A DNA stretch of 64,000 bases from Endomicrobiales bacterium (GTDB lineage: Bacteria > Elusimicrobiota > Endomicrobiia > Endomicrobiales > JALOBY01), in the NCBI GenBank assembly GCA_963796955.1, contig CAWCNJ010000004.1, positions 1-64,000 of the forward strand, written 5' to 3'. The notes beneath the pieces are model-generated. The model searched no databases. It saw only the letters and a program-made list of their open reading frames with translations, and was not told the origin of the DNA. Every line of letters starts with the position of its first letter. Positions within the stretch are counted from its first letter, which is position 1. A program made the translations under genes and the position numbers. Of this stretch, positions 4,022 to 33,376 are shown in pieces.

Positions 4022-4459
4022 AAGTATGCGTGTCGTATTAACTAAAAACTTTTACAAGGATTTATTATGAAATCATCGATCTACTATTTTTCCGGAACAG
4101 GGAACTCTCTGGCGGTGGCGCGGCAGTTGGCGGGCGTGTTGGACTCCTGTGAATTGGTCCCGGTAGCGCAGACAATGGTTGATGAGCGTTTGTTAACGTG
4201 TACCAGCAAAACCGTGGGGTTGGTAGTGCCGTTGTATTACGGCGGCTTGCCGAAGATAGTGGCGGAATTTTTGGGAAAGGTAACTTTTACCGGTGTTGAG
4301 TATGTGTTTGTGGTGATAACTGCGGGGCATGACCTGGGCACCGGCATCGCTGAAGCTAACGGGATCCTTGGCAAGAAGGGCCTGCGGGTATCGTATTGGA
4401 CTTGCCCCGGTTTAGTGGACACAGAAAAGGGTATAATATGAAGACCCTGGAGGTGTCCG

Positions 4460-4798
4460 ATGCAAAAGAGAGACCGGATGCGTTACAATCGGGAGTTCAA
4501 GCTTGAAGCAGTTCGCCGGACGCAGGTAAGCGGCAAAAGTGTTGCCGAAGTAGCCCGCGAGCTTGAGTTGCCCGTACATCATCTTTACAAGTGGCGAACC
4601 GAGGTTGATAAAAAAACCACTGAAGCATTTCCCGGTGTTGGCCACAACACCCCCAACACAGAGCTAGAAGATCTTCGCCGAGAGAACAAACGCTTGCGCG
4701 AAGAGCGGGACGTTTTAAAAAAAAGCCTAATTTACTTTGCCAAGGACGCATTGAACGATTCCGGTTCATCAGGGAACACGAACGGGACTTCAGAATAG
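4460..4798 (+). CDS. IS3 OrfA (HTH)
   Basis: YNREFKLEAV...VAEVARELEL HTH and ELEDLRRENKRLREERDVLKK zipper. Confidence 0.92.
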   Translation: MQKRDRMRYNREFKLEAVRRTQVSGKSVAEVARELELPVHHLYKWRTEVDKKTTEAFPGVGHNTPNTELEDLRRENKRLREERDVLKKSLIYFAKDALNDSGSSGNTNGTSE

Positions 4799-5631
4799 CA
4801 ACAATGTGCGATGTTCTGTCGGTTTCCAGATCCGGATATTATGCATGGAAATCGCGCGGTCAAAGCAAGCATAGCCGGACAGACACCGTATTACTGAGCA
4901 AAATTCGGGGCATTTATGATAAAAACCGGAAAGTATACGGAGCTCCCCGAATTCATGAAGCGCTGAAGTCCGAAGGTTTAAAGCTGGGACGAAAGCGCGT
5001 AGCAAGACTGATGAGAAAGAACGGTATCGTTGCAGCGCCACATCGCCGTATGCGATGGAAACGAGTGTTTAAGACAGCTATAGCAGCTGACAACCTGGTG
5101 CAACAACAGTTCAATGTTCCTGAACCAAACCGGGTCTGGGTCGCAGACATGACGACGTTCTGGACAGGTTCCGGATGGGTTCATCTGGCGGTTGTGCTAG
5201 ACCTTTATTCGCGCAGGGTCGTTGGTTGGGCCATTCACGGCCAGATGACGGAGCGCCTTATAGTGAATGCCCTGGAAATGGCCATTGAGAGTCGCAGACC
5301 GACGGGGCCGTTGATTCATCACTCGGACCAGGGTAGCCAGTATAAGAGCTATGCGTTTCAGGCTAGATTAAAAGAGCATAACATTCAGATGAGCATGAGC
5401 CGCAAAGGAAATTGCTGGGACAACGCTGTTGCAGAGAGCTTCTTCAAGACATTGAAGTACGAATTACAAAACGACGCCAGATTCAATTCTCGCGAAGAAG
5501 CGAGAGCACAGTTGTTTGAGTACATCGAAATATTTTATAATCGCAAGAGAATGCACTCAACGTTGGGGTATCTTAGCCCCACACAGTTCGAGGCAAAATT
5601 ACCCGCTCTTGTGTCCACAAAAACGGGTTAA
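4723..5631 (+). CDS. IS3 OrfB (DDE integrase), fused to OrfA by -1 programmed frameshift
   Basis: A8G slippery run at 4717-4725; the -1 frame is open through to ATG 4804; WVADMT, HSDQGSQY and AESFF form the DDE triad. Confidence 0.92.
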   Translation, partial: KPNLLCQGRIERFRFIREHERDFRIATMCDVLSVSRSGYYAWKSRGQSKHSRTDTVLLSKIRGIYDKNRKVYGAPRIHEALKSEGLKLGRKRVARLMRKNGIVAAPHRRMRWKRVFKTAIAADNLVQQQFNVPEPNRVWVADMTTFWTGSGWVHLAVVLDLYSRRVVGWAIHGQMTERLIVNALEMAIESRRPTGPLIHHSDQGSQYKSYAFQARLKEHNIQMSMSRKGNCWDNAVAESFFKTLKYELQNDARFNSREEARAQLFEYIEIFYNRKRMHSTLGYLSPTQFEAKLPALVSTKTG

Positions 5632-14734: not shown

Positions 14735-15424
14735 ATGCAAACTTTCACTAATTTAACTTTGAATTTGATGTTGTTCGCTTCAATGGTTACCGGCATAGCG
14801 CATGCGGATACCAGGGTTATGAAACAGGCCGGAGCTCCCATTCAAGCTAAGGATTTTTCTTACCTGCTTGGCACCGAGGGTTTCAGCGATACCTTGTTGA
14901 AAAACCATTTCAAACTGTATGAGGCGTATGTAAAGAACACTAACACATTGCTGGACGCGCTCAACAAAATGAGCGCCGACAAGACCGACAAAACGCCCCA
15001 GTACGCGGAATTAAAGCGCCGGCTCGGGTGGGAATTCAATGGCGTGTTATTGCATGAATATTATTTTGAGAATATCGGTAAAGGGGAAATACCCGGCGAT
15101 AATAGTCCCTTGAAGAAAAAACTGGCAGAAGCTTTCGGCAGCTTTGATAGCTGGAAGCAGGATTTTACCGCTACCGCCTCCATGCGCGGTATCGGCTGGG
15201 TAGTGCTCTACGTTGAACCACGCACCGGAAAGGTCGTCAACGAATGGATCAACGAACACGACACCGGCCACCTGTGCGGCGCGACGCCATTATTGATACT
15301 GGATGTCTTCGAGCACGCCTATATAACGGACTACCAGCTGGATAAGCCGAAATATATCGAAAATTTCCTGAAGAATATAAATTGGAAGGTGGTGGAAGAG
15401 AGGTTCAATAAACTGAGTCAGTAG
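14735..15424 (+). CDS. Fe/Mn superoxide dismutase (ChrC-like subgroup) with putative signal peptide
   Basis: Metal ligands in NHFKLY, LLHEYYF and DVFEHAY; hydrophobic N-terminus ending AHA; SD GAGGTG. Confidence 0.9.
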   Translation: MQTFTNLTLNLMLFASMVTGIAHADTRVMKQAGAPIQAKDFSYLLGTEGFSDTLLKNHFKLYEAYVKNTNTLLDALNKMSADKTDKTPQYAELKRRLGWEFNGVLLHEYYFENIGKGEIPGDNSPLKKKLAEAFGSFDSWKQDFTATASMRGIGWVVLYVEPRTGKVVNEWINEHDTGHLCGATPLLILDVFEHAYITDYQLDKPKYIENFLKNINWKVVEERFNKLSQ

Positions 15425-15457
15425 CGGTTACATTAAATTCCGGTTTTGCAGCAATAG

Positions 15458-15507
15458 CCTGCCGTGTCTCAGCCGCAAGGTCGTGAGATACGGCAGGTCA
15501 TTTTTTT
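15458..15507 (+). terminator. Intrinsic terminator after sod
   Basis: CCTGCCGTGTCTCA/TGAGATACGGCAGG stem followed by T7. Confidence 0.8.
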
Positions 15508-15624
15508 GTCCGTATGTCGGTATTTTTACCTGTTCTCAAAAAAATTCTGTGACACGGCCGCCAGAAAAATATAGTATATAGAGAATCTTAACACCGATAG
15601 AAGCTTTTGCGATCAAGGATACTC

Positions 15625-18600
15625 ATGAGAATTCCTACAACGCTGTCCTATGCTTTTTTGTTGCTGTGGTTACCAGTCGCCGGGAATTGCGGGATCATAA
15701 CGGGCAGCCCCGACCTGGTGCTCGGCCAGCAGGATATTAATACTTCCGTTGCTAATACCGTCGACGGCAAAGGACTTGATTTGCCCGCTGGCGTAGCGAT
15801 CGATAAGGCGACCGGCAGAATCTATGTGTCCGATACCTATAATAATCGGGTTCTCTGGTGGGATAATGCGGCCGGGCTTGCAAACGGCGCACCGGCCAAC
15901 GGTGTGCTGGGACAGCGGGATATGGTCGGCTGCACGGCGAATGGCGGCGGAACGGTCGATGCCGGCAATTTTTCATCGCCGGCAGGTCTGTGTGTTGATA
16001 GCGGCGGTAATCTCTGGGTAGTGGACACCGGTAATTCGCGCGTGCTGAAATTCGGGCATCCTTATGCAAACGGGGCGAAGGCAGAGCTTGTCCTGGGGCA
16101 ACAGTATTTAGACCGTGTTCAACGGGGGCCTGCTGCTATGTCTTTAAATATCCCGCGAGGTGTCTATGTAGACGGCAATGGTGATGTGTGGGTAACTGAC
16201 GCATACTTTAACCAGATTTTGCGGTTCTCCCGTCCTGAAAGTAATGGCCCCTCAGCTAACCTGATACTAGGACAGGCAATATTGCGCCAGCCTTACGGTA
16301 TAACTGGCGACAATGCAGGCAACATCTGGGTATCTGATTACTACAACAACCGTGTTCTTCATTACGATCTTGCGGTCAGCACCGTGAATGCCGTGTCGGT
16401 GTACGGTCAGCCGGATTTCAACAGTATAAGCATGAATAGAGGAAAAGGCTGGTCCGGTATCGGTGCTGATACGATTTACGCGCCAACCGGAATAGTTTAT
16501 GACGGGGCCGGAGGTCTGTACGTTACCGATTGCGCGGGCGCACGTGTTGTGAAATACTCATTTGCCGCCAGCACCTGCAACGCGGTGTGTGTTTTGGGTC
16601 AGCCCAATTTTACAACCTTAGGTTATGCTGCTGGCGTCGGCTCGAGCACGATAAGCGGCGCTATAGGGCTAAGCGTTGATGCCTCGGCTAATCTCTGGAT
16701 TGCCGATAAAGGGGGTAACCGGGTATTGAGGTTCTCTGCGAACACACTTACCTCAGGCGCAGGTTCCGATAAAGTCATCGGCCAGCCGCTTTTTACGAGC
16801 AACTCTGTAAATTCTGTCAGCAACAAGGGCATGGACGCGCCCTTCGATATAGCCATAGACACGCAAACAGGAAGGATGTACGGCGTTGATCAAAAAAATA
16901 ACCGGGTTCTGTGGTGGAATAACTGCGCTGCTCTTGCTAATGGCGCCCCGGCCGACGGTGTCGTGGGGCAGGCTGATACCATGTCGGGCGCGATAAACGG
17001 CGGCGGTGATTGCGGGCCGGCTACCCTGAACCAACCCATAGGCATATGCGTTGACGGCTCGGGAAATCTCTGGGTTGCCGATGAGAATAATCAGCGCGTG
17101 GTCCGCTTTCCGGCGCCGGTTGTAACAGGCGAGTCGGCTGATATCGTTTTAGGGCAATTTAATTTCACCAGCAACAATCCCGGTTCAGGCACAAAGGGCC
17201 TTACATGCCCGTACGATGTAGCTGTTGACAGTAGCGGCAATGTCTGGGTCTCTGATTCGGTTAATAACCGGCTGCTTAAATACAATTATCCTCAGTCTAA
17301 CTGGGCGCCTGCGGATATGGTGCTTGGTCAGGCCGATTTTACCACATTTTACGCTAATCGCGGGGGGGCGGTTTCCGCGGGCGGCTTGCAATACCCCAGG
17401 CATATTACGATAGATCCTTCAGGCAGGCTGTGGGTTGCAGACGATTGGAACCACCGGGTGCTTTGTTTTAACGCGCCTTCTGCTAACGGCGCTAACGCCG
17501 ACGGTGTGATCGGCCAGCCCGATTTTATAAGCGGTAGCGAAAACAGAGGCCTCGGGGTGTATAATCCCGGCGCGGATTGCCTCAGGGACCCTTTCAGTGT
17601 TACCTTTGACCGTAGAGGCTACCTGTGGGTAAGTGACCGGGGCAACAACCGCGTGTTAGGCTACTCACTGGCTGCAAGTTCTTCGGCGGTTTTCGTGGTT
17701 CCCACGAATATTTTCATCGGCAACGGTGTTGAGGAAGACCCCATGGGATTATGCGCCGATGCGGCGGGCAATATCTGGGTCGCCGACTGCGCTCTGCACC
17801 GGGTGCTGAAATATAACACCCTTGCCTTAACAGCATGCGCACCGTCGGTGGGGAGAAACCATTGTTCCGAAAGGCTGACGCTGCTGGGGCAGGAATTCAC
17901 ACCATCAAGCAGTGTAAAGCTGACAAAGCAGGGAGAGCCTGACATCACCGGCGTTACCCAGGTGCTGGATGCAGGAAGGTTAGGGTTTTCCACCAGTCTG
18001 ATGGGCAAAACAACCGGGACCTGGAATATTGTGGTGAGCACCGGAGGCGCCTATCCGTGCTACTCCGTCACCTATCCGCTGGAGATAATCGCCTCCTCGA
18101 ACGCGGTTGTCGGCGTGGTAAGCGGCGCCGCGGGTGGTAGTTTTTCGTTACCGCTTTACTGGGGAACCGTGACCGTGAATGTGCCGGGCGCAGCTTTTGC
18201 CTCTGATCTGTACATGTCGGTAAGCGAAGCTGCATTGCCTCTGGGGTCGCAGGGAGCGGTAAGGCCCGGCGCGATGGCCTTTGAGATACAGAATAGCCTG
18301 GCTGCTCAGCCGCAGAAAGAAATAAATATCAGCATCGCCTACCTGAACTCAATGATATCACAGGCGCCTGAAAGCAGGTTGTATATAGCCCGTTACGACG
18401 ATACGCGACACACGTGGATATTACTGCCTTCAAGTGTGGACACAGCCCGTTGTGTGGTTACCTGCACGACCGATCATTTGTCAACGTTCGCGCTGGTCCA
18501 GATAGCGGCGCAGAACAACCTTGATGAGTTCAAGGTATACCCCAATCCTTACCGGCCGGGATCCGCGACCGACCACAATGATACTGCGCTGGGCAAAGGG

Positions 18601-18816
18601 ATCGTATTTTCCGGACTTACCGAACGCTCCAGGATCAGGATATTTACCGTGGCGGGCGAGCTGGTGCGCGAAATAAAATCATCCGGCGCCGTTGTGCTGT
18701 GGGACACTAAAAATAACGGCGGCGCGGATGTTGCCTCCGGCGTGTATGTATATATCGTGACGGATCCTGATGATACGTCGCACAAGGCTCACGGCAAGTT
18801 GGCGATCGAGCGATAA
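15625..18816 (+). CDS. Secreted NHL-repeat (beta-propeller) protein with T9SS type-A-like C-terminal domain
   Basis: Signal peptide; many P-x-G-x-x-VD-x-x-GNLWVxD-x-x-N-x-RV-L...LGQ repeats; C-terminus KVYPNP...IFTVAGELVR...WD...ASGVY...GKLAIER. Confidence 0.88.
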   Translation: MRIPTTLSYAFLLLWLPVAGNCGIITGSPDLVLGQQDINTSVANTVDGKGLDLPAGVAIDKATGRIYVSDTYNNRVLWWDNAAGLANGAPANGVLGQRDMVGCTANGGGTVDAGNFSSPAGLCVDSGGNLWVVDTGNSRVLKFGHPYANGAKAELVLGQQYLDRVQRGPAAMSLNIPRGVYVDGNGDVWVTDAYFNQILRFSRPESNGPSANLILGQAILRQPYGITGDNAGNIWVSDYYNNRVLHYDLAVSTVNAVSVYGQPDFNSISMNRGKGWSGIGADTIYAPTGIVYDGAGGLYVTDCAGARVVKYSFAASTCNAVCVLGQPNFTTLGYAAGVGSSTISGAIGLSVDASANLWIADKGGNRVLRFSANTLTSGAGSDKVIGQPLFTSNSVNSVSNKGMDAPFDIAIDTQTGRMYGVDQKNNRVLWWNNCAALANGAPADGVVGQADTMSGAINGGGDCGPATLNQPIGICVDGSGNLWVADENNQRVVRFPAPVVTGESADIVLGQFNFTSNNPGSGTKGLTCPYDVAVDSSGNVWVSDSVNNRLLKYNYPQSNWAPADMVLGQADFTTFYANRGGAVSAGGLQYPRHITIDPSGRLWVADDWNHRVLCFNAPSANGANADGVIGQPDFISGSENRGLGVYNPGADCLRDPFSVTFDRRGYLWVSDRGNNRVLGYSLAASSSAVFVVPTNIFIGNGVEEDPMGLCADAAGNIWVADCALHRVLKYNTLALTACAPSVGRNHCSERLTLLGQEFTPSSSVKLTKQGEPDITGVTQVLDAGRLGFSTSLMGKTTGTWNIVVSTGGAYPCYSVTYPLEIIASSNAVVGVVSGAAGGSFSLPLYWGTVTVNVPGAAFASDLYMSVSEAALPLGSQGAVRPGAMAFEIQNSLAAQPQKEINISIAYLNSMISQAPESRLYIARYDDTRHTWILLPSSVDTARCVVTCTTDHLSTFALVQIAAQNNLDEFKVYPNPYRPGSATDHNDTALGKGIVFSGLTERSRIRIFTVAGELVREIKSSGAVVLWDTKNNGGADVASGVYVYIVTDPDDTSHKAHGKLAIER

Positions 18817-18818
18817 TA

Positions 18819-19754
18819 ATGAAACCTGGAGCCCATGTGAAAAGATCTTGCGCGATCGTGCTGAGTGTGTTGGTGATGAATATCGTTTCGTATGCGGCAT
18901 TTTCAAAAGATGATGCAGGAACCTCAGCCGCCCAGTTCTTGAAGCTGGGCGCCGGCGCCAGGGCGACCGCCATGGGCAACGCCTATGCCGGCCTTGCGGA
19001 TGATTCAACCGCGGTTTATTGGAACCCTGCCGGCCTATTGCGCACCGCCGGCCCCGAACTGTCTTTTATGCATTCCGTGTGGTTCGAAGATATTTCCTAC
19101 GATTGGTTCTCATATTCAAGACCGGTGGGCCCGCTTGGCGCTTTTGGCCTTGGGGTGCAATACCTTTCCTACGGCAGTATCACGCAGACCGATAATACCG
19201 GGCTTGATACGGGTGATTTCAAACCGGCCGACAGCGCGGTGACATTGTCCTACGGCAGAAAAGTGTGCGGCTTTTTAGCCGGTGTAAGCGTCAAATATAT
19301 TTCATCGAAAATAGTTACTACGGCTACCGCCTACGCGCTGGACCTGGGGGTAATGCGCACCCTGCTGAACGATAAGCTCTCCCTCGGCTTTACAGCCCAG
19401 AACATAGGGACCAGGCTGAAGTACTACTCCGAGGAAGAGCAGCTTCCGCTGAGCCTCACGCTGGGCGGCGCATACGTTATTAAAGACGGCTGGTTGGCGT
19501 CCTTAGATCTGAACGCGCCTGTAGATAATGAACCGAATATCGGGGTCGGCACAGAATATTCTTACCACTACTCCACGAAGGTCGCTATCGCTGTCAGGGC
19601 GGGTTACAATACAAAGGCGAAAGATGTCGGTGGCCTTAATGGCGTCAGCGGCGGCATAGGTATAACGTACATGAAGTATTCGCTGGATTATGCCTTCGTC
19701 CCATACGGAGACCTCGGCGACACGCAAAGGATCAGTATTTCCTGCAAATTCTAA
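18819..19754 (+). CDS. PorV/PorQ-like (UPF0164) outer-membrane beta-barrel
   Basis: AQFLKLGAGARATAMGNAY...YWNPAGL; DYAFVPYGDLG; terminal Phe. Confidence 0.85.
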   Translation: MKPGAHVKRSCAIVLSVLVMNIVSYAAFSKDDAGTSAAQFLKLGAGARATAMGNAYAGLADDSTAVYWNPAGLLRTAGPELSFMHSVWFEDISYDWFSYSRPVGPLGAFGLGVQYLSYGSITQTDNTGLDTGDFKPADSAVTLSYGRKVCGFLAGVSVKYISSKIVTTATAYALDLGVMRTLLNDKLSLGFTAQNIGTRLKYYSEEEQLPLSLTLGGAYVIKDGWLASLDLNAPVDNEPNIGVGTEYSYHYSTKVAIAVRAGYNTKAKDVGGLNGVSGGIGITYMKYSLDYAFVPYGDLGDTQRISISCKF

Positions 19755-19958: not shown

Positions 19959-21542
19959 TTGTGCAAAAAAGTATGTTGGCAGATGTATATTAAATTAGGC
20001 TTTGGTAAAATATTCGGGTGGCTTAAAAACTCTCCAATACGCTCTGTCGCATTGGTTTCAATAGTTATTTTCTCTCTGTCTGAAGCGTGCGACAAAATAT
20101 GGCGTTCTACCGGGAATCAGCCGGGACGTCCGAACAACAGTATACAGCTGCCGGTGATCAGCGAGCTTTTCGCGTCCGCCATCACCACTAATAGCGCCTT
20201 GATCATCTGGAAGACGCCAAAGCCTTCGGATTCAACGGTGAATTTCGGTGAAACCACCAGCGCGAACACGCCGGTAACGATACATGTAATGTCGGTGCAG
20301 CACTCTGTCGCTTTGAGTAATTTAAAAGCCGGTACCAAGTATTACTTTATCGCCAGCAGCCGGGATTCTCTGGGAAATGTTAATGTTTCCGCCCAAATGA
20401 GTTTTACGACGGAAAATTTGAGTTCGGACGTTACCGGTCCGGTCATCAGCAATTTGAGCGCCACGCCCACTCCGACTTCCGGGGCGACACTACTGAGCGT
20501 TTCCGCGACGGTCTCGGACGCCGCCACCGGCGGTTCCAACGTCGTGGCTGTTGAGTGTTTCCTCGATGCACAAGGGGCAACGGGTACCGGTACGGCGCTG
20601 AGCGCCCAGGACGGAGTATTTAATTCAGTGACAGAAAATGTAAATGGGACGATAAGTATCGCGGGTCTTCCCGTCGGCCCGCACACCATCTACGCGCACG
20701 GCAGCGACTCCAGGAATAACTGGGGAGCATTTCAGAGCTTCCCCATATCAGTGACTGCAGCGACGTCGGGCGATACGGTGGGACCTCTGACTGCTAGTTT
20801 CAATATAACGCCCAATCCCAGCGCCGGTGCCGCCAGCGGTGCGATCTCCGCCACCATCTCAGATGTGGGTACGGGGAACTCTAATATCAGCGCTGCAGAA
20901 TATTTTGTTGATTCCCAGGGGGCGAACGGTACCGGTATCAGCCTGGCCGCCAAGGACGGTGCCTTTAATTCACCGACGGAAGCCGTATCGGGTACCATTA
21001 ATACGGCCGGTCTTTCCCTGGGAACTCACCGGATATATTTAAACGGCAGGGATTCGCAAAACAATTGGGGCGGCGCCCAATTCGTGGACCTGGTGATAAC
21101 CTCCGCGGTCGGTAAACCCGACGCCTCAAGTCTGACCGTGGTAAGTTACGGCATGGTATCACCGTCGTCCCATTCGACAGAAGCTGTCTGGATAGAAGAC
21201 AGTTTGGGAAATTTTGTCCGCTCGCTTTTTGTGGGCACCTACGCAGATGCCAACACCAATTTCCTTCCGACCTGGGAAACCGTATCAGGCGGGCAAACGA
21301 ACGGTACGACCGGGGCATCAAAGTCCGCCGGGAGCTTTACGGCCACCTGGCAGCCCATGTTCCAGTCGGGCGGTTCTGTCATGGTGATCCAGGGCAATTA
21401 CCGCTACCGGCTGGAGTACCGCCAGGAAGGGAGCGCGCCGGTCGTGTTCACCGGCACCTTATCGGTCGGGAATGCGCCTTCCTCGTCAAGCGGGACGAAT
21501 GGAACACCGGTCAGTTCGTTATCGGCGTCGTATACGCCTTGA
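19959..21542 (+). CDS. Probable lipoprotein: Fn3-like domain, two Ig-like repeats and a C-terminal DUF2271-like flavinylation domain
   Basis: LSEAC lipobox-like sequence; LKAGTKYYF Fn3; two ~110-aa repeats (GP...DG.FNS.TE...D..NNWG); AVWIED.GNFVRSL...W...NGTTGAS; start uncertain. Confidence 0.75.
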   Translation: MCKKVCWQMYIKLGFGKIFGWLKNSPIRSVALVSIVIFSLSEACDKIWRSTGNQPGRPNNSIQLPVISELFASAITTNSALIIWKTPKPSDSTVNFGETTSANTPVTIHVMSVQHSVALSNLKAGTKYYFIASSRDSLGNVNVSAQMSFTTENLSSDVTGPVISNLSATPTPTSGATLLSVSATVSDAATGGSNVVAVECFLDAQGATGTGTALSAQDGVFNSVTENVNGTISIAGLPVGPHTIYAHGSDSRNNWGAFQSFPISVTAATSGDTVGPLTASFNITPNPSAGAASGAISATISDVGTGNSNISAAEYFVDSQGANGTGISLAAKDGAFNSPTEAVSGTINTAGLSLGTHRIYLNGRDSQNNWGGAQFVDLVITSAVGKPDASSLTVVSYGMVSPSSHSTEAVWIEDSLGNFVRSLFVGTYADANTNFLPTWETVSGGQTNGTTGASKSAGSFTATWQPMFQSGGSVMVIQGNYRYRLEYRQEGSAPVVFTGTLSVGNAPSSSSGTNGTPVSSLSASYTP

Positions 21543-21576
21543 AATGGTAACTTCGTATGACCATAAGGAAGGTTTT

Positions 21577-21795
21577 ATGATAAAACGCTGGCTCAAGCTG
21601 ATGCTGATCTGGGGTTTGTTGCCCGTCTGCGGCTGTTCCTCGGTGGCTCCCTGGCAGAAGGGGATCGTCGGCGACAGTACCATGCAGTTCCAGGGAGAAC
21701 AATCGGGTGCGGTTTATGAACAACACATGCTCAACGCACGCGAGGCTTCAAGCGGCGGATATGGCGGTTCCGGCGGAGGCTGCGGGTGCAAATAG
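21577..21795 (+). CDS. DUF4266-family lipoprotein
   Basis: CGCSSVAPWQKG...AREASSGGYGGSGGGCGCK; SD AAGGAAGG. Confidence 0.88.
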   Translation: MIKRWLKLMLIWGLLPVCGCSSVAPWQKGIVGDSTMQFQGEQSGAVYEQHMLNAREASSGGYGGSGGGCGCK

Positions 21796-21818
21796 TAATT
21801 ATCAGTAGGGGGGCAGAT

Positions 21819-22379
21819 ATGTTCATCGTAACGATTAAAAAGCTGGCTATGGTATGTGCGGCGCTGTTAATGCTTTTGTCGTCCGCGTTCGCGGAGTTGA
21901 AGATCGGCGATAAGGCTCCGGATTTTACGATAAAAGATGCTGCAGGCCGCACCGTGTTCACGCTGGGTGAATATAAGGGGAGTAAAATAGTTTATCTGGA
22001 TTTTTTCGCCACCTGGTGCACCAACTGTCAGGAGGAAATGGACCAATTAAAAGCTATTCATTCTCGCTACGGCGGACAGGGTCTTGAGATGATAGCAATT
22101 GACGTGCAGGAAGATGAGGCCAAGATGAAGAAATTTGTGGCCAAATACGGTATTCCCTTCCGGGTATTGCTTGATCCTGATGCGGAAATAGCCCGCAAAT
22201 ACGGTCTCGCCGGCTTCCCGTTCAATCTTATAATCGACGGTAACGGCAAAATAGTTTTCGTGGATTCCGCGCCTCCAAAGGATTTCGGGAAGATATTCGA
22301 GCCCTTGAAGGGAACCATTGCGCAAAAGGAAACGCCCAAAACCAGATCTCCCGGCGCTAAACCCGTAAAGACCAAGTGA
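21819..22379 (+). CDS. TlpA/ResA-like exported thioredoxin
   Basis: Signal peptide ending AFA; APDFT; DFFATWCTNC; cis-Pro motif GFP. Confidence 0.9.
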   Translation: MFIVTIKKLAMVCAALLMLLSSAFAELKIGDKAPDFTIKDAAGRTVFTLGEYKGSKIVYLDFFATWCTNCQEEMDQLKAIHSRYGGQGLEMIAIDVQEDEAKMKKFVAKYGIPFRVLLDPDAEIARKYGLAGFPFNLIIDGNGKIVFVDSAPPKDFGKIFEPLKGTIAQKETPKTRSPGAKPVKTK

Positions 22380-23501
22380 GGAGGAAGGCGATACTTATTG
22401 CGCTGATCCTGATGTGCGCTGCCGGCGCCGGCAGACGGGTATGTCGCGCCACGACAGAAGCCAGCTTGAAATATGTCACCTATGACGACAATGATAAAGC
22501 CGATGTTACCACCGAATCCGTCGATGTTTCTTTCGACGCGGCACGGTGGACGAAGGTTTTGATCTCCGGCACGCTTGATTCCATAACCGGGGCTTCGCGC
22601 AAGATACCTATCATAAACGGCATTACTGCCGCCACGTCCACCAATCAGCTTGAGAGGGTAGAGCAGCGGAAGGAAAAATCCCTGGGTGTAGCCCAGCGGG
22701 TGGGAGGTAATACGTTCACGGTGATCGGCGACAACAGTCTGGAAGATGACTACGAATCAAATTCTTACAATCTTTCCTGGGCAAAGGAATTTAATAACCG
22801 CAATAACGCCGGTGACCGTTTCGTATTCCGGATTTAAAGACAGGCTGTTCCCCTTCGGGGTTTCCTGGACCGATACGAAGGATTCGCAAATTTATGATCT
22901 TTCTTTTACGAGCGTTCTGACTACCAGGTCCCAGATGCGCGCCTCGGCCAGCTACGGCCTTGATGATGGTTACCTTTCCAACCCCTACCACCGCATAAAC
23001 ATCGACGGCTTCTATTTTATGGAACGCCACCCGGTACTGCGCGATAAGCTCGCTTTCGGATTGTTCTATAATCTTGGGTTTTCGGGTGAACGAATATCCT
23101 CTGTGCAGCTTGATTACCGGTATTATGCGGACAGCTGGGAAATAAAGTCGCATACGTTCGGGGTGAAATTCTCCCAACATATAACGGATGCCCTCACGGC
23201 TTCCCTGCGGCAGCGTTATTATGTGCAGTCCGGCGCCTATTTTTTCAAGAACCCGTATACGCAGGAAGAGGAGTTCATGACGGGCGATCCAAAACTCGCG
23301 CCGTTCACTTCCACGCTTTCAGGCATAGGCCTGACGTTGGAGGCGACACGCTGGTTATCTTTCGAACTGCTGTATGAACAGTATCACCAGCGTTCGAGTA
23401 TCAATTATGCCTACATTTATGAATCGGTCGCCAAGGCGGACCTGATCTCCCAGATACTGTTCATAAGCACAAAACTGAAGTTCAATATAACGGGCGAGTG
23501 A
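22376..23501 (+). CDS. DUF3570-family outer-membrane protein, frameshifted near 22800-22806
   Basis: DSITGAS, EDDYES, GYLSNPY, ERHP..R, YRYYADSWEIKSHT, RYYVQSGAYFF and GDPKLAPF motifs across two overlapping ORFs; +1 shift at AATAACCGCAATAACG. Confidence 0.8.
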
Positions 23502-23514
23502 GCCCGGATCCCCT

Positions 23515-23871
23515 ATGAGAACGGTAGACGGTATATTAATAGCGCTGATAGTGGCAGTCTCACTTTTCCTTTTGTACGGGCAATTGTTCTTAACGCCGCG
23601 GGCGGTAACGGCGCGCATCTATGAGAACGGCATAAAGATAGCGGATATCGACCGCGGAAAGGACGCGAGGATCCCGATTATAGGCGGCAAAATGCATATA
23701 GAGGTCAGGGACGGATCGTTAAGGATCGCTGATTCGAATTGTCCGGGACAATGCTGCGTGCGCGGCGGCTGGATCAATAAAAGCGGACAAAGCCTGGTAT
23801 GCGCGCCGAACAGGGTATCGATAGAACTTACCGGCGGGGAGGATTCGGAATATGACGCGCTCACACGGTGA
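23515..23871 (+). CDS. NusG domain II / EetA-like protein
   Basis: N-terminal TM; SNCPGQCCVRGGWI...LVCAPNRV; C-terminal YDAL. Confidence 0.88.
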   Translation: MRTVDGILIALIVAVSLFLLYGQLFLTPRAVTARIYENGIKIADIDRGKDARIPIIGGKMHIEVRDGSLRIADSNCPGQCCVRGGWINKSGQSLVCAPNRVSIELTGGEDSEYDALTR

Positions 23872-24994
23872 TATCTCGCTTATGGCGGCGACGGCAAGCG
23901 TGCTGCAGATAGCGGAGTCCTTTATACCGTTGCCGCTGCCGGGTATAAAATTCGGTTTTGCCAATCTGATAACGCTTGTTGCGCTGGTGCTGTACGGTTT
24001 TCGTGCAGGTCTGGCGGTCGCCCTGCTGCGAGCGCTGATCAGTTCCCTGCTGCTTGGAAGTTTTCTTTCGCCCGGCTTCGTTCTCAGCGTTTCTGGCGCC
24101 GTTTCCAGCGCGCTTATTATGGGGGCCGTCCTTTGTATTGATAGCGAACAAAAGGTGCTGGGACTGGTCGGTATCAGCGTGCTTGGCGCCCTCGCGCACA
24201 ATTTTGCTCAGCTCTTTGTCGTCTCCACCCTTTTTACCGGTTTACGATCCGTTGTATGGTTCGTCCCCTGGATATTGTTGAGCGGGGCCTTGACCGGATA
24301 CTTGACGGGTTCGGCGGCCATACGGCTTCTGCGTCGTTTAAAAAGGCACAGTGCCCGGCATCCCAGCCCCATTATCGTGTCGCCCGGCGAAAAACGTGGT
24401 AGCGCGGGCGTAGCGGCAGCGTCAATGAAATTGATCATTTTTTTTGCGGCGGCCGTGTTCATTATGAGCACGAAAAGTTTGTTAAGTTATGTGCCGCTGC
24501 TCGCGTTGATAGGCGGACTTGCGGTGTATGTCAGGATACCCGCTGATAAGATCTTAAAAAATATGAAGCGCTTGTTATTCGTTTTGCTGTTTTCATTCAT
24601 CGTGAACGCATTTCCCGCATGGCATTGGGGCATTCCGGGCTGGGAGAACCTGCGGCTCGGCTGCATTGTTTGCCTGCGCCTTATAACGCTTACTGCGGCA
24701 GCGCTGCTGGTTATGGAAACAACGAGCGGCCATGAGATCGCCGGAGCGCTTCAGCTGATGATGAAGCCCTTGAGAGCCTTCGGTCTGGACCCGGCCCGCA
24801 TAGCCGGCTATATCGCATCGGCTCTTGAAACAGCGCCGGCCTACGCCGCCCATGTGCGCCGCCGGTTGAGCAGGATATCACCGGCGCGAAAAAGGAGCTT
24901 CAAATATATGTCCGCCTTCGCCCTCTCAGCGTTAACATCCGCTCTCAGGGACAACAACCAGGGGGCCTTTGCGTATGCGCGATCAAAAGTGTAA
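23852..24994 (+). CDS. Gx transporter (EetB-like) fused to an EcfT/CbiQ-like (FmnA-like) membrane domain
   Basis: N-half E..IPLPLPGIKFGFAN...GISVLGALAHNFAQL; C-half LRLITL...METTSGHEIAGALQLMMKPLRAFG, typical of EcfT. Confidence 0.8.
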   Translation: MTRSHGDISLMAATASVLQIAESFIPLPLPGIKFGFANLITLVALVLYGFRAGLAVALLRALISSLLLGSFLSPGFVLSVSGAVSSALIMGAVLCIDSEQKVLGLVGISVLGALAHNFAQLFVVSTLFTGLRSVVWFVPWILLSGALTGYLTGSAAIRLLRRLKRHSARHPSPIIVSPGEKRGSAGVAAASMKLIIFFAAAVFIMSTKSLLSYVPLLALIGGLAVYVRIPADKILKNMKRLLFVLLFSFIVNAFPAWHWGIPGWENLRLGCIVCLRLITLTAAALLVMETTSGHEIAGALQLMMKPLRAFGLDPARIAGYIASALETAPAYAAHVRRRLSRISPARKRSFKYMSAFALSALTSALRDNNQGAFAYARSKV

Positions 24995-25973
24995 GTGGTT
25001 CTTTGCAGCGGTATTAGGCGCGGTCTTGTGCGGCTGCACGCCAAAAGAACCGGTCATTCAAACCCGTTTTCTATTCGATACGGTTTGTAAGATCACTGTT
25101 CCAGCTTCGGAAAATAACGCGGTCTTTGCGGTCAACGAAGCATTCAACAGAGCCCGGGAAATACATGAAAAATTCAACGTGCTCAACAGTTCTTCACCGC
25201 TGTACGCGTTCAATCATTACGGTACGCCGATACGTGACAGTGAAGTGGCAGGTCTGGTCACCACAGCCTTCAAGATCCGTGAAGAAAGCGGCGGCGCTTT
25301 TGACCCTACGGTGTACCCGCTCGTAATGCTCTGGGGTTTTTATTCGGATACGCCGGCACTGCCGGAAAAAAACGCTATCAAAAATGATCTTGCCCTGACA
25401 GGCCCGGATGCGGTGCGTCTCGAAAAGGGGAAGGTTTATGCGTTAAAAAATGGCGCCGGCCTGGACCTGGCGGGCGTGGTGTCCGGCTACGCGGCCGACG
25501 AAGCGCTGAAGGTGCTTAAGAAAAACGGGATAAAGTCCGCGCTGATAGACATGGGGGGCGAGATCTACGCGCTCGGTTCTAACAACGGCAGAAAATGGAA
25601 AGTAGGCCTTAAAGATCCCAGGGGTGAAGGAATAATAGGCATTATCGAGCTTGAAAACGAGGCGGTTGTTACGGGCGGGGATTACGAGAAGTATTTTATG
25701 GTTAACGGGAAGAGATACTGCCATATCCTGGATCCGAAGACCGGCTACCCGGCCGAAGGAATGCAGAGCGTCAGCGTGCTACACCCGTTAACGGTCATTG
25801 CTGACGGCTGGTCTACCGCTTTTTTCGTGCTCGGCGCTGAAAAAGGTTTTGAGATAGTGAACAAAAAAGCGGAATTTAAGGTTTTGGCGGTTACCGGTGA
25901 AGGAAAGCTGATCGGTTCCTTCGGTACAAAAAAACAGTTCACGCTGAAAAAGATCGGGGCGCCGGTTCTGTAA
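24975..25973 (+). CDS. apbE: FAD:protein FMN transferase (lipoprotein)
   Basis: VLCGC lipobox; GAFDPTV, GDYEKY, HILDPKTGYP, ADGWSTA. Confidence 0.93.
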   Translation: MRDQKCKWFFAAVLGAVLCGCTPKEPVIQTRFLFDTVCKITVPASENNAVFAVNEAFNRAREIHEKFNVLNSSSPLYAFNHYGTPIRDSEVAGLVTTAFKIREESGGAFDPTVYPLVMLWGFYSDTPALPEKNAIKNDLALTGPDAVRLEKGKVYALKNGAGLDLAGVVSGYAADEALKVLKKNGIKSALIDMGGEIYALGSNNGRKWKVGLKDPRGEGIIGIIELENEAVVTGGDYEKYFMVNGKRYCHILDPKTGYPAEGMQSVSVLHPLTVIADGWSTAFFVLGAEKGFEIVNKKAEFKVLAVTGEGKLIGSFGTKKQFTLKKIGAPVL

Positions 25974-25992
25974 AAGTATCAAGGGGGGATGT

Positions 25993-26667
25993 ATGCATAT
26001 AGATTTTTCACACCTGAGCATCGGCACATTTTTGGCGGTCTATGCCGCCGGCTTTATCACTTCGCTTACCCCGTGCGTATATCCGATCATCCCCATCGTG
26101 GTAGGTTTTCTCGGTTCACGTTCAGGTGGTTTCGGCTCACGGGCGAAAGGCGCGGTATTATATACGCTCGGGCTTGCGTTCGTCTACACGGCCCTCGGCA
26201 TGGTAGCGGCACTGACGGGAAAGATATTCGGCACGTTGACGGCTAACTCGTACGTATTCGGCGCCTTCGGGCTGCTTATCCTTGTGCTGGGCGGCAATAT
26301 GATGGAGTGGTACATCATACCGATACCGGGCTTTAAGGTAACTATGGAAGGAGAAAAGGAGTCGTTCTTCACGCCGTTCATTGTAGGTATGAGCACCGGG
26401 CTTGTGGCCTCGCCCTGTACGGCTCCGGTGCTTGGGGGCTTGCTCATGTTCGTAGCCGCGACAAAAGCCGTTGTGAAAGGCGGTCTTTTGATGTTCACTT
26501 TTTCCGTTGGCATGAGTACGCTGCTGCTGATCATAGGGTTTTCCGCCAGTTTGATCAGCTTCCTTCCCAAATCCGGACAATGGATGGTCACCGTGAAGAA
26601 AGTCCTGGCCCTGATCCTTATCTGCGCGGGGCTGTACTTTGTTTTCCTTGCCGGTAAACTTTCATAA
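25993..26667 (+). CDS. DsbD/CcdA transmembrane electron-transfer domain
   Basis: SLTPCVYPIIP and ASPCTAP Cys motifs; LPKSGQWM. Confidence 0.92.
   Translation: MHIDFSHLSIGTFLAVYAAGFITSLTPCVYPIIPIVVGFLGSRSGGFGSRAKGAVLYTLGLAFVYTALGMVAALTGKIFGTLTANSYVFGAFGLLILVLGGNMMEWYIIPIPGFKVTMEGEKESFFTPFIVGMSTGLVASPCTAPVLGGLLMFVAATKAVVKGGLLMFTFSVGMSTLLLIIGFSASLISFLPKSGQWMVTVKKVLALILICAGLYFVFLAGKLS

Positions 26668-31976: not shown

Positions 31977-33376
<1,400 letters not shown>

Follow-up and report, generated by a model that had tools for sequence, protein, structure and literature searches.

The 64,000-nucleotide stretch analysed here (the window; positions 1 to 64,000 of contig CAWCNJ010000004.1, assembly GCA_963796955.1, an Endomicrobiales bacterium of the Elusimicrobiota) contains, at 19959..26667, a cluster of eight co-oriented genes on the + strand that joins a DsbD/DUF3570-type flavinylation system to a probable flavin adenine dinucleotide (FAD) export cassette. 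Successive genes are separated by 34, 23, -4, 13, -20, about -26 and 19 bases, and the cluster is bounded by gaps of 204 and 156 bases. The genes, followed by three candidate sites for covalent flavin mononucleotide (FMN) attachment, are listed below.

19959..21542, + strand: stalked DUF2271 lipoprotein; Pfam fn3 and DUF2271, with orthologs above the DUF2271 cut-off.
21577..21795, + strand: DUF4266 lipoprotein of 72 amino acids (aa) with a Gly-rich tail and a terminal CGC (CxC at 21781-21789); Pfam E 8e-15.
21819..22379, + strand: TlpA/ResA-like thioredoxin-fold protein with a signal peptide and CTNC at 22017-22028; Pfam AhpC-TSA/Redoxin.
22376..23501, + strand: DUF3570 outer-membrane barrel gene, split; Pfam matches both halves, and the barrel is taken from the model of an ortholog (genome G004).
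23515..23871, + strand: EetA-like NusG domain II protein that has a membrane anchor at its N-terminus; Pfam NusG_II E 3e-20.
23852..24994, + strand: EetB (the S component of a transporter of the energy-coupling factor (ECF) type, PF07456, E 3e-37) fused to an EcfT with a shortened C-terminus; likely exporter of FAD.
24969..25973, + strand: ApbE flavin transferase of the lipoprotein type (hydrophobic stretch and Cys), with an ATG at 24975; Pfam E 1e-77.
25993..26667, + strand: CcdA-type DsbD transmembrane protein of 224 aa; DsbD_TM E 6.5e-35.
21300..21320, + strand: candidate FMN site of the DUF2271 domain, NGTTGAS; invariant in three orthologs, Asp form in P0168.
22577..22597, + strand: candidate FMN site 1 of DUF3570, DSITGAS, at the end of strand 3; full consensus.
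22616..22636, + strand: degenerate candidate FMN site 2 of DUF3570, NGITAAT, in the long disordered loop 2 (strands 3-4); two consensus deviations.

The initial annotation, made from the sequence alone, had described eight co-oriented, tightly spaced genes, and the coordinates and gaps agree with it except that the DUF3570 gene occupies two frames. Its domain calls were upheld by Pfam, weakly for DUF2271 in the window protein itself and strongly in the orthologs. The DsbD/CcdA call stands in part: the DsbD_TM domain is matched, but because the protein has only 224 aa and lacks the periplasmic domains of DsbD, it was assigned to the CcdA type. Its Cys28 and Cys142 lie in Pro-Cys motifs and are invariant in 7/7 aligned proteins, as is the WCxxCxEE of the TlpA-like protein (thioredoxin matches PF00578/PF08534/PF13905; 7/7 aligned). 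The catalytic residues of ApbE and all catalytic cysteines of the cluster are intact. A role of the CcdA-TlpA pair in cytochrome c maturation is not favoured, as ccsA and a second ccdA-tlpA pair sit elsewhere. Scans for promoters and terminators gave no excess over chance (7 against 6.0 and 10 against 8.9, respectively), and an Rfam scan of the window returned two tRNAs only, both outside the operon.

The first protein of the cluster, whose start is more likely the ATG at 19986 than the TTG, consists of a conserved Cys44, an FN3 domain (about aa 70-150), two Ig-like repeats of about 114 aa each (154-267 and 269-382) and a C-terminal DUF2271 domain. DUF2271 scores 23.6 bits in the whole window protein and 25.4 bits in the domain alone, against a Pfam cut-off of 27.3 that three orthologs exceed with 49-55 bits; Atlas gave 0.86 for DUF2271 and 0.95 for Ig-like. 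The number of Ig repeats is two in the window and in G008, three in P0168 and seven in G004, and the lipobox is canonical in the orthologs and atypical in the window copy. In a survey of 301 Elusimicrobiota genomes, including the source genome of the window (81% complete), a stalked DUF2271 protein was found in four, each time immediately 5' of DUF4266-TlpA-DUF3570. A further DUF2271 match (locus L103) was dropped as a FlgD-Ig protein.

The three motifs that the initial annotation proposed as ApbE targets were all located at its positions, and they differ in their fit to the full consensus D-x-x-[ST]-G-A-[ST] (PMC12052999): DSITGAS agrees completely, whereas NGTTGAS lacks the Asp and NGITAAT lacks both the Asp and the Gly. 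Loss of the Asp is reported to have little effect, and the Gly-to-Ala change to halve flavinylation (PMC12052999). NGITAAT still aligns with the second motif of the DUF3570 orthologs. Among 150 DUF3570 proteins, the motif-1 Asp occurs in 147 and the strict motif in 107. A strict [ST]GA[ST] arises by chance in 28% of shuffles of the 527-aa stalk protein, 10% of its C-domain and 3% of the DUF3570 N-half, so that the motifs are credible because their positions are conserved, not because they are rare. FMN attachment has been shown on DUF3570 and DUF2271 homologs from Chlorobium and Amantichitinum (PMC8238504). The source genome encodes RibF, and neither an FMN_bind protein nor a motif-bearing RnfD was found in it, leaving DUF3570 and DUF2271 as its only evident ApbE clients. 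An RnfC-like and RnfD-like pair follows rex at C8:382088-384315 of this genome, with no other rnf genes nearby and no flavinylation motif.

Structural models of the barrel and of its complex with DUF4266 were built on the intact G004 orthologs, not on the split gene of the window. The AlphaFold2 (AF2) model of G004 DUF3570 (150 homologs; pLDDT 92.3, pTM 0.86) has 16 long strands, with connections that alternate between short turns at one face and long loops at the opposite one. Its closest structural matches are outer-membrane barrels, the best of the PgaA type (4y25; Z 20.3, rmsd 3.5, 262 aligned residues), and an Mtr barrel gave a generic match only (Z 15.4, rmsd 8.1); searches of PDB sequences with the DUF3570 and DUF4266 profiles returned no solved relative of either. 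As a rule, both termini of outer-membrane barrels are periplasmic. With the termini of DUF3570 placed by this general topology, the candidate FMN motifs, located where strand 3 ends and within loop 2, would lie on the outer face, at the mouth of the barrel.

For the DUF3570-DUF4266 complex, whose prediction the initial annotation had suggested, the G004 orthologs gave an ipSAE of 0.75 against 0.01 for the best control; of 157 solved pairs 116 attained the mark set for this score, and of 215 mismatched pairs 2 did, counts that are rough for alignments of our own. Model runs had at least 77% of contacts in common, a partner pLDDT of at least 68, and 179-212 contacts. DUF4266 contacts alternating polar residues on 14 of the 16 DUF3570 strands, the intervening residues being hydrophobic, which places it in the barrel lumen. 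Its residues 38-43 contact the short turns (DUF3570 239-241, 265-267 and 273) and its residues 57-66 the far strand ends (DUF3570 191, 225, 281, 283 and 311), a pattern that directs the C-terminus, with the Gly-rich CxC tail, at the motif-bearing face. The terminal Cys pair is invariant in 94/94 aligned homologs, which had been preselected for a terminal CxC. DUF4266 is thus a predicted plug of the DUF3570 barrel lumen, in a model that supports binding and does not show it.

The sixth gene encodes an S component followed by a T component. The model of the EetB-EcfT fusion (pLDDT 80.9) resembles RibU in its S half (TM 0.71) and EcfT in its T half (TM 0.55-0.62 over the target); Foldseek with the whole fusion model gave no match at E <0.001, and the S and T matches were taken from rows of probability 1.00. 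The EcfT-like nature of the second half was also apparent from the family profile against 4HUQ_T (E 3e-34), which covers residues 16-224 of the 280 of Lactobacillus brevis EcfT and leaves a gap at the first Arg motif. Fused T halves (17 matches) end at position 129-198 of the 216 of the CbiQ model, and 18 stand-alone T proteins at 206-214. The C-terminal arginines of the EcfT coupling helices dock the ATPases (PMC4820897, PMC3971661). As judged from the alignments, the T half of the fusion ends before the end of the second ATPase-docking helix and is without the first.

No ECF-type ATPase and no stand-alone EcfT were found in the 81% of the source genome that is available (best score 155 bits), and the single-domain ATP-binding cassette (ABC) ATPases examined there classify as other systems. 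The TIGR04520 cut-off was rejected as a test for ECF ATPases, since 0/25 passed it although true ECF ATPases of seven relatives score 188-254 bits; two ATPases whose genes neighbour stand-alone T genes reach no more than 147-153 bits, and the assessment rested on gene neighbours and stand-alone T genes. Stand-alone T genes are absent from 8 of 25 other fusion-bearing genomes, including G004 (97% complete). Most likely, the fusion would work without ECF ATPases, and FAD may be released downhill and trapped by ApbE.

The form of ApbE varies with the presence of the exporter. In all four genomes with a stalked DUF2271 protein, the ApbE of the locus is a lipoprotein and an EetB-EcfT fusion is encoded (adjacent in three). 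PF07456 has no match in the other six DUF3570-bearing Elusimicrobiota genomes (97-100% complete), whose ApbE is signal-less (6/6) and presumably works in the cytoplasm. Lipoprotein ApbE may track the exporter because an exported ApbE would need periplasmic FAD.

The initial annotation had proposed a search for further loci with both modules, and they are co-located in 3 of the 301 genomes. Besides the source genome these are G004, which has the same eight-gene order and an intact barrel gene, and G085, in which the modules are adjacent but reshuffled, with apbE moved and the contig ending; in G008 the DUF cluster is present and eetB-ecfT lies elsewhere in the genome. Matches above cut-off were found in 10 genomes for DUF3570 and in 26 for PF07456, and the open frames that contain the 28 PF07456 matches are 346-425 aa long (14 aligned), so that the EetB-EcfT fusion is the rule in Elusimicrobiota. 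In a wider set of 148 DUF3570 loci (80 kept of 337 genome matches, and 68 metagenome matches), searches with hidden Markov models (HMMs) found DUF4266, adjoining DUF3570, in 138, TlpA in 88, ApbE in 84, CcdA in 17 and EetB in 2, counts that are lowered by short contigs and narrow HMMs. Both EetB-bearing loci (L034 and L114) agree with the Elusimicrobiota loci in gene order and probably do not count as independent of them. DUF3570-DUF4266 itself is widespread (4,033 clusters at 50% identity). Near 15 other eetB-ecfT loci of Elusimicrobiota, eetA occurs in 9, apbE in 9, DUF3570 in 2 and FMN_bind in 4. On these counts, the eetA/eetB-ecfT cassette is regarded as a general supply unit for ApbE that joined the DUF3570 cluster in one lineage.

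Several loci met in these surveys deserve separate mention. Four Elusimicrobiota loci (L020:7148-11727, L022:171-4929, L030:7540-12685 and L032:2247-9176) contain eetA, eetB-ecfT, apbE and an FMN_bind gene together with one or two proteins of about 400 aa that have no Pfam match and C-termini like those of outer-membrane barrels; a TGAT motif is present in one of these proteins, and one of the four loci adjoins genes for NrfD and a 4Fe-4S protein. They are a candidate second flavin/outer-membrane system. A second eetB-ecfT clade (L021, L023, L025, L026 and L027), near nadC/birA/rex-like genes and without eetA or apbE, may have a different substrate. An Ignavibacteria locus (L042:7204-10786) encodes TlpA, DUF4266, DUF3570, a NusG-II protein with an N-terminus like that of twin-arginine translocation (Tat) substrates, and ApbE, with no eetB seen, indicating that EetA can join a DUF3570 cluster without EetB.

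Taken together, the locus may be read as an outward thiol-to-flavin conduit: a DsbD/DUF3570 flavinylation system in an Elusimicrobiota subtype that brings along its own maturation genes. We assign this reading a probability of roughly one half. Electrons would pass from cytoplasmic thioredoxin to the CcdA cysteine pair, in line with established CcdA/DsbD chemistry, and from CcdA to periplasmic TlpA. TlpA would then reduce the CxC tail of DUF4266, held in the lumen according to the model, and the tail would in turn reduce one or two FMNs at the outer mouth, on strand 3 and loop 2 of DUF3570; here flavinylation is extrapolated from a homolog, the position comes from the model and the outer side from barrel topology. 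From the barrel, electrons may proceed to the FMN of the Ig-stalked DUF2271 domain or directly to an outside acceptor, the outward direction being itself part of the proposal. For maturation, EetB-EcfT, with EetA, would supply periplasmic FAD to the lipoprotein ApbE without an ATPase. Such a heme-free outer-membrane conduit is plausible, and it would be a low-flux counterpart of a porin-cytochrome conduit, bringing biosynthetic reducing power to the cell surface.

A number of observations weigh against this conduit. Its weak link is the access of periplasmic TlpA to a tail near the outer mouth: a CxC in that position would not obviously be within reach, and residues 74 and 76 of G004 DUF4266, which form the CxC, fall outside the confidently placed set. 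The tail, 13 residues long and flexible, may swing across the lumen, or assembly may be the only stage at which the relay acts. The second DUF3570 motif, NGITAAT, is degenerate, and the operon encodes no acceptor or terminal enzyme. CcdA, in 17/148 loci, and ApbE, in 84/148, are not obligate neighbours of DUF3570, and 5 of the 15 other Elusimicrobiota fusion loci have neither eetA nor apbE nearby. FAD specificity is ascribed to the likely exporter by homology and context. The correlation between exporter and ApbE type comes from 10 genomes that are kin, and of 80 ApbEs from outside the phylum 29 scored as signal-bearing, mostly without an adjacent eetB; the link is thus a lineage pattern and not a law. 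The incompleteness of the source genome adds to these points. The initial annotation had spoken of a complete heme-free wire, which goes too far for a locus with a split barrel gene, no encoded acceptor, a motor-less exporter and a CxC tail left unplaced by the model.

The flux that CcdA can provide bears on the strongest alternative, which we consider rather unlikely: a reductive uptake gate, in which the CxC would bind an outside metal or chelate (Fe, Cu), the FMN would reduce it, and CcdA-TlpA would keep the cysteines reduced or assist assembly. CcdA electron flux is biosynthetic in scale and below respiratory need, as such a gate would allow. The G008 locus includes an Rrf2 regulator, and close to the G004 locus there is a multicopper-oxidase-like gene. 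An iron connection is also suggested by 25 published clusters with a VIT1 iron transporter, for which the authors propose iron assimilation, and by the usual home of DUF2271 in iron-linked PepSY clusters (PMC8238504). However, the open reading frame (ORF) lists of the window locus and of three sister loci include no metal transporter, and with its 179-212 contacts the plug seems to fill the lumen.

The state of the DUF3570 gene raises a second and still less probable alternative, that the locus is inactive in this organism because the frameshift is real and another DUF3570 locus took over. ORFs 22376-22837 and 22746-23501 lie in different frames, and alignment to the intact orthologs of G004 and G008 places one extra base (a +1 frameshift) at about 22807-22812. 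The initial annotation was right on the family and its place in the operon, but it overlooked the frameshift and treated the gene as a single ORF. Consistent with inactivity, an intact DUF4266-DUF3570-ApbE-TlpA locus with a signal-less ApbE is present on contig C5 of the source genome (L010:7169-11380), and the lipobox of the window stalk protein is atypical. In contrast, both DUF3570 halves are otherwise free of lesions (41-46% identity to orthologs), the catalytic cysteines and ApbE residues are all intact, and housekeeping genes are split in the same way. The gene for the ATP synthase beta subunit, atpD (31977-33376), occupies two frames with a break at a short C run near 32180, Pfam matching both pieces, which is likely an assembly error. 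Among source-genome genes with homologs in relatives, 7 of 154 show a frame change, DUF3570 included (6 of 153 others), a count that may be too high as one antisense ORF and one divergent sensor are among the matches; the names secD-like and lepA-like in this control are readings of N-termini. A smaller, first control gave 1/55, the DUF3570 gene itself. As the assembly also breaks atpD and other genes, the DUF3570 frameshift is probably a sequencing or assembly error. Because the assembled window copy is split, the locus of G004 would serve better for study, and the value of the finding lies mostly in the family. A Cache/PAS sensor gene stands 5' of the C5 DUF3570 locus, and its homolog likewise 5' of the G004 cluster.

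Least probable is an inward or periplasm-confined flow, with thiols serving only maturation and the stalk spanning the periplasm to shuttle between the barrel FMN and inner-membrane or periplasmic partners, in harvesting or sensing of the outside redox state: lipoproteins by default face the periplasm, 2-7 Ig repeats are in the length range of a periplasm-spanning tether and PAS/Cache sensor genes stand 5' of two DUF3570 loci, but a periplasmic stalk would hardly reach outer-loop motifs of a plugged barrel, variable stalk length equally fits a surface stalk, and the locus encodes no quinone-linked membrane partner.

Beyond this locus, it can be tentatively suggested, at odds well short of those of the outward conduit, that DUF3570-DUF4266 represents a widespread and undescribed class of heme-free conduit in which the plug CxC would ferry CcdA-TlpA electrons to outer FMN, the Elusimicrobiota subtype adding an FMN domain at the surface, carried by an adjustable stalk of Ig repeats, and a single-chain ECF exporter that needs no ATP. 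The DsbD/DUF3570 system has been without a mechanism since 2021, and the barrel-and-plug model makes it testable. If the proposal is true, diderm bacteria move electrons across the outer membrane by thiols and covalent flavin, not by hemes. Moreover, the difference between exported and signal-less ApbE at these loci would account for the FAD exporter in some clusters, and the fusion offers a natural test case for ECF exporter function without ATPases.

The surroundings of the cluster were also inspected. The flanking porV/NHL and atp genes were rejected as members of the system, as they are not conserved next to the loci of G004 and G008. At 14735-19754 the window encodes an Fe/Mn superoxide dismutase that is extended at its N-terminus by a signal-like stretch, an NHL propeller protein of 1069 aa whose C-terminal domain resembles those of the type IX secretion system (T9SS), and a PorV-family barrel; these genes show no conservation beside the sister loci. 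Two tandem IS200-like transposase ORFs at 69-1481, the first truncated, are identical over their first 60 residues and represent either a duplication or a misassembly at the contig start, and at 4067-5631 a flavodoxin-like ORF abuts an IS3-like two-ORF element at its end. Elsewhere in the source genome, very long ORFs of 8817 aa and at least 5051 aa occur at C6:114890-141340 and C2:2-15154.

By operational definition, the locus is a member of the published DsbD-like system: a PF02683 gene lies within five genes of apbE/DUF3570/DUF2271, ccdA being directly 3' of apbE, and ApbE is accompanied by a thioredoxin-like protein, DUF4266 with a C-terminal CxC and at least one exported target. The DsbD system comprises ApbE, DUF3570, a thioredoxin-like protein, DUF4266 and DsbD in 285 clusters from 275 genomes, and was presented as a hybrid thioredoxin/flavinylation system whose function was left open (Méheust 2021, PMC8238504). 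All five components, the DUF4266 CxC and DUF3570 motif 1 are present in the window locus. Unlike the two-motif DUF3570 of that system, the window gene is split, with motif 1 strict and motif 2 degenerate; the thioredoxin matches PF00578/PF08534/PF13905 instead of PF13899; and the locus adds the stalked DUF2271 lipoprotein and the eetA/eetB-ecfT cassette. As the words 'barrel' and 'lipoprotein' occur 0 times in the main text of PMC8238504, the barrel and plug are not described there. No match to PF03929 or PF16357, the families that would mark a PepSY-like system, was obtained among the cluster genes.

EetA, EetB and EetB-EcfT fusions beside apbE have been published, with eetB also outside Firmicutes, and EetB binds and exports FAD (Rivera-Lugo 2023, PMC9973259). 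The eetB associations listed in the text of that paper are Rnf, extracellular electron transfer (EET), MsrQ-like and NapH-like, a list that does not include DsbD/DUF3570, and DUF3570/PF12094 has 0 matches among 13,709 of the rows of its Data Set S1. With the Listeria EetB-FmnA-EcfA/EcfA' exporter the window locus shares the S-component fold, the EcfT partner and the eetA and apbE neighbours, and it differs in its shortened T half and in the ECF ATPase not found in the source genome. With the Listeria EET locus (Ndh2, DmkA/B, PplA, FmnB, EetA/B and FmnA) it has EetA, EetB, FmnA-like and FmnB-like genes in common. In contrast to that locus, it belongs to a diderm, has thiols instead of quinone as the proposed electron source and is without Ndh, prenyltransferases or an FMN_bind protein: there is no Ndh in the eight genes or their flanks, and FMN_bind (PplA) has 0 matches in the cluster and 0 in the 81%-complete source genome. 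The locus is not a Listeria-type EET module.

The combination had been put forward as an undescribed system, and it was not found in the literature searched, although the supplementary tables of PMC8238504 and PMC9973259 could hold such clusters; a term search of PMC11334425 gave 0 occurrences of DsbD, barrel or thioredoxin. Since the DsbD system and the eetA/eetB-ecfT cassette are each in print, both building blocks are already known. Within the literature searched, the features not found in print are their combination, the DUF2271 domain on a 2-7-repeat Ig stalk, the 16-strand DUF3570 barrel model with its DUF4266 lumen plug, and, in such a locus, an ATPase-less EetB-EcfT fusion that lacks ATPase docking. 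No CxxCH occurs in the operon, and the multi-CxxCH proteins of the source genome include none from the locus. In porin-cytochrome conduits (MtrAB) and in LptDE, a redox or plug protein is enclosed in an outer-membrane barrel. The DUF3570-DUF4266 pair is likened to them, homology aside, by its predicted barrel-enclosed partner, and is set apart by its predicted 16 strands, a plug of about 50 residues with a CxC, and the FMN that would be covalently bound to the barrel itself.

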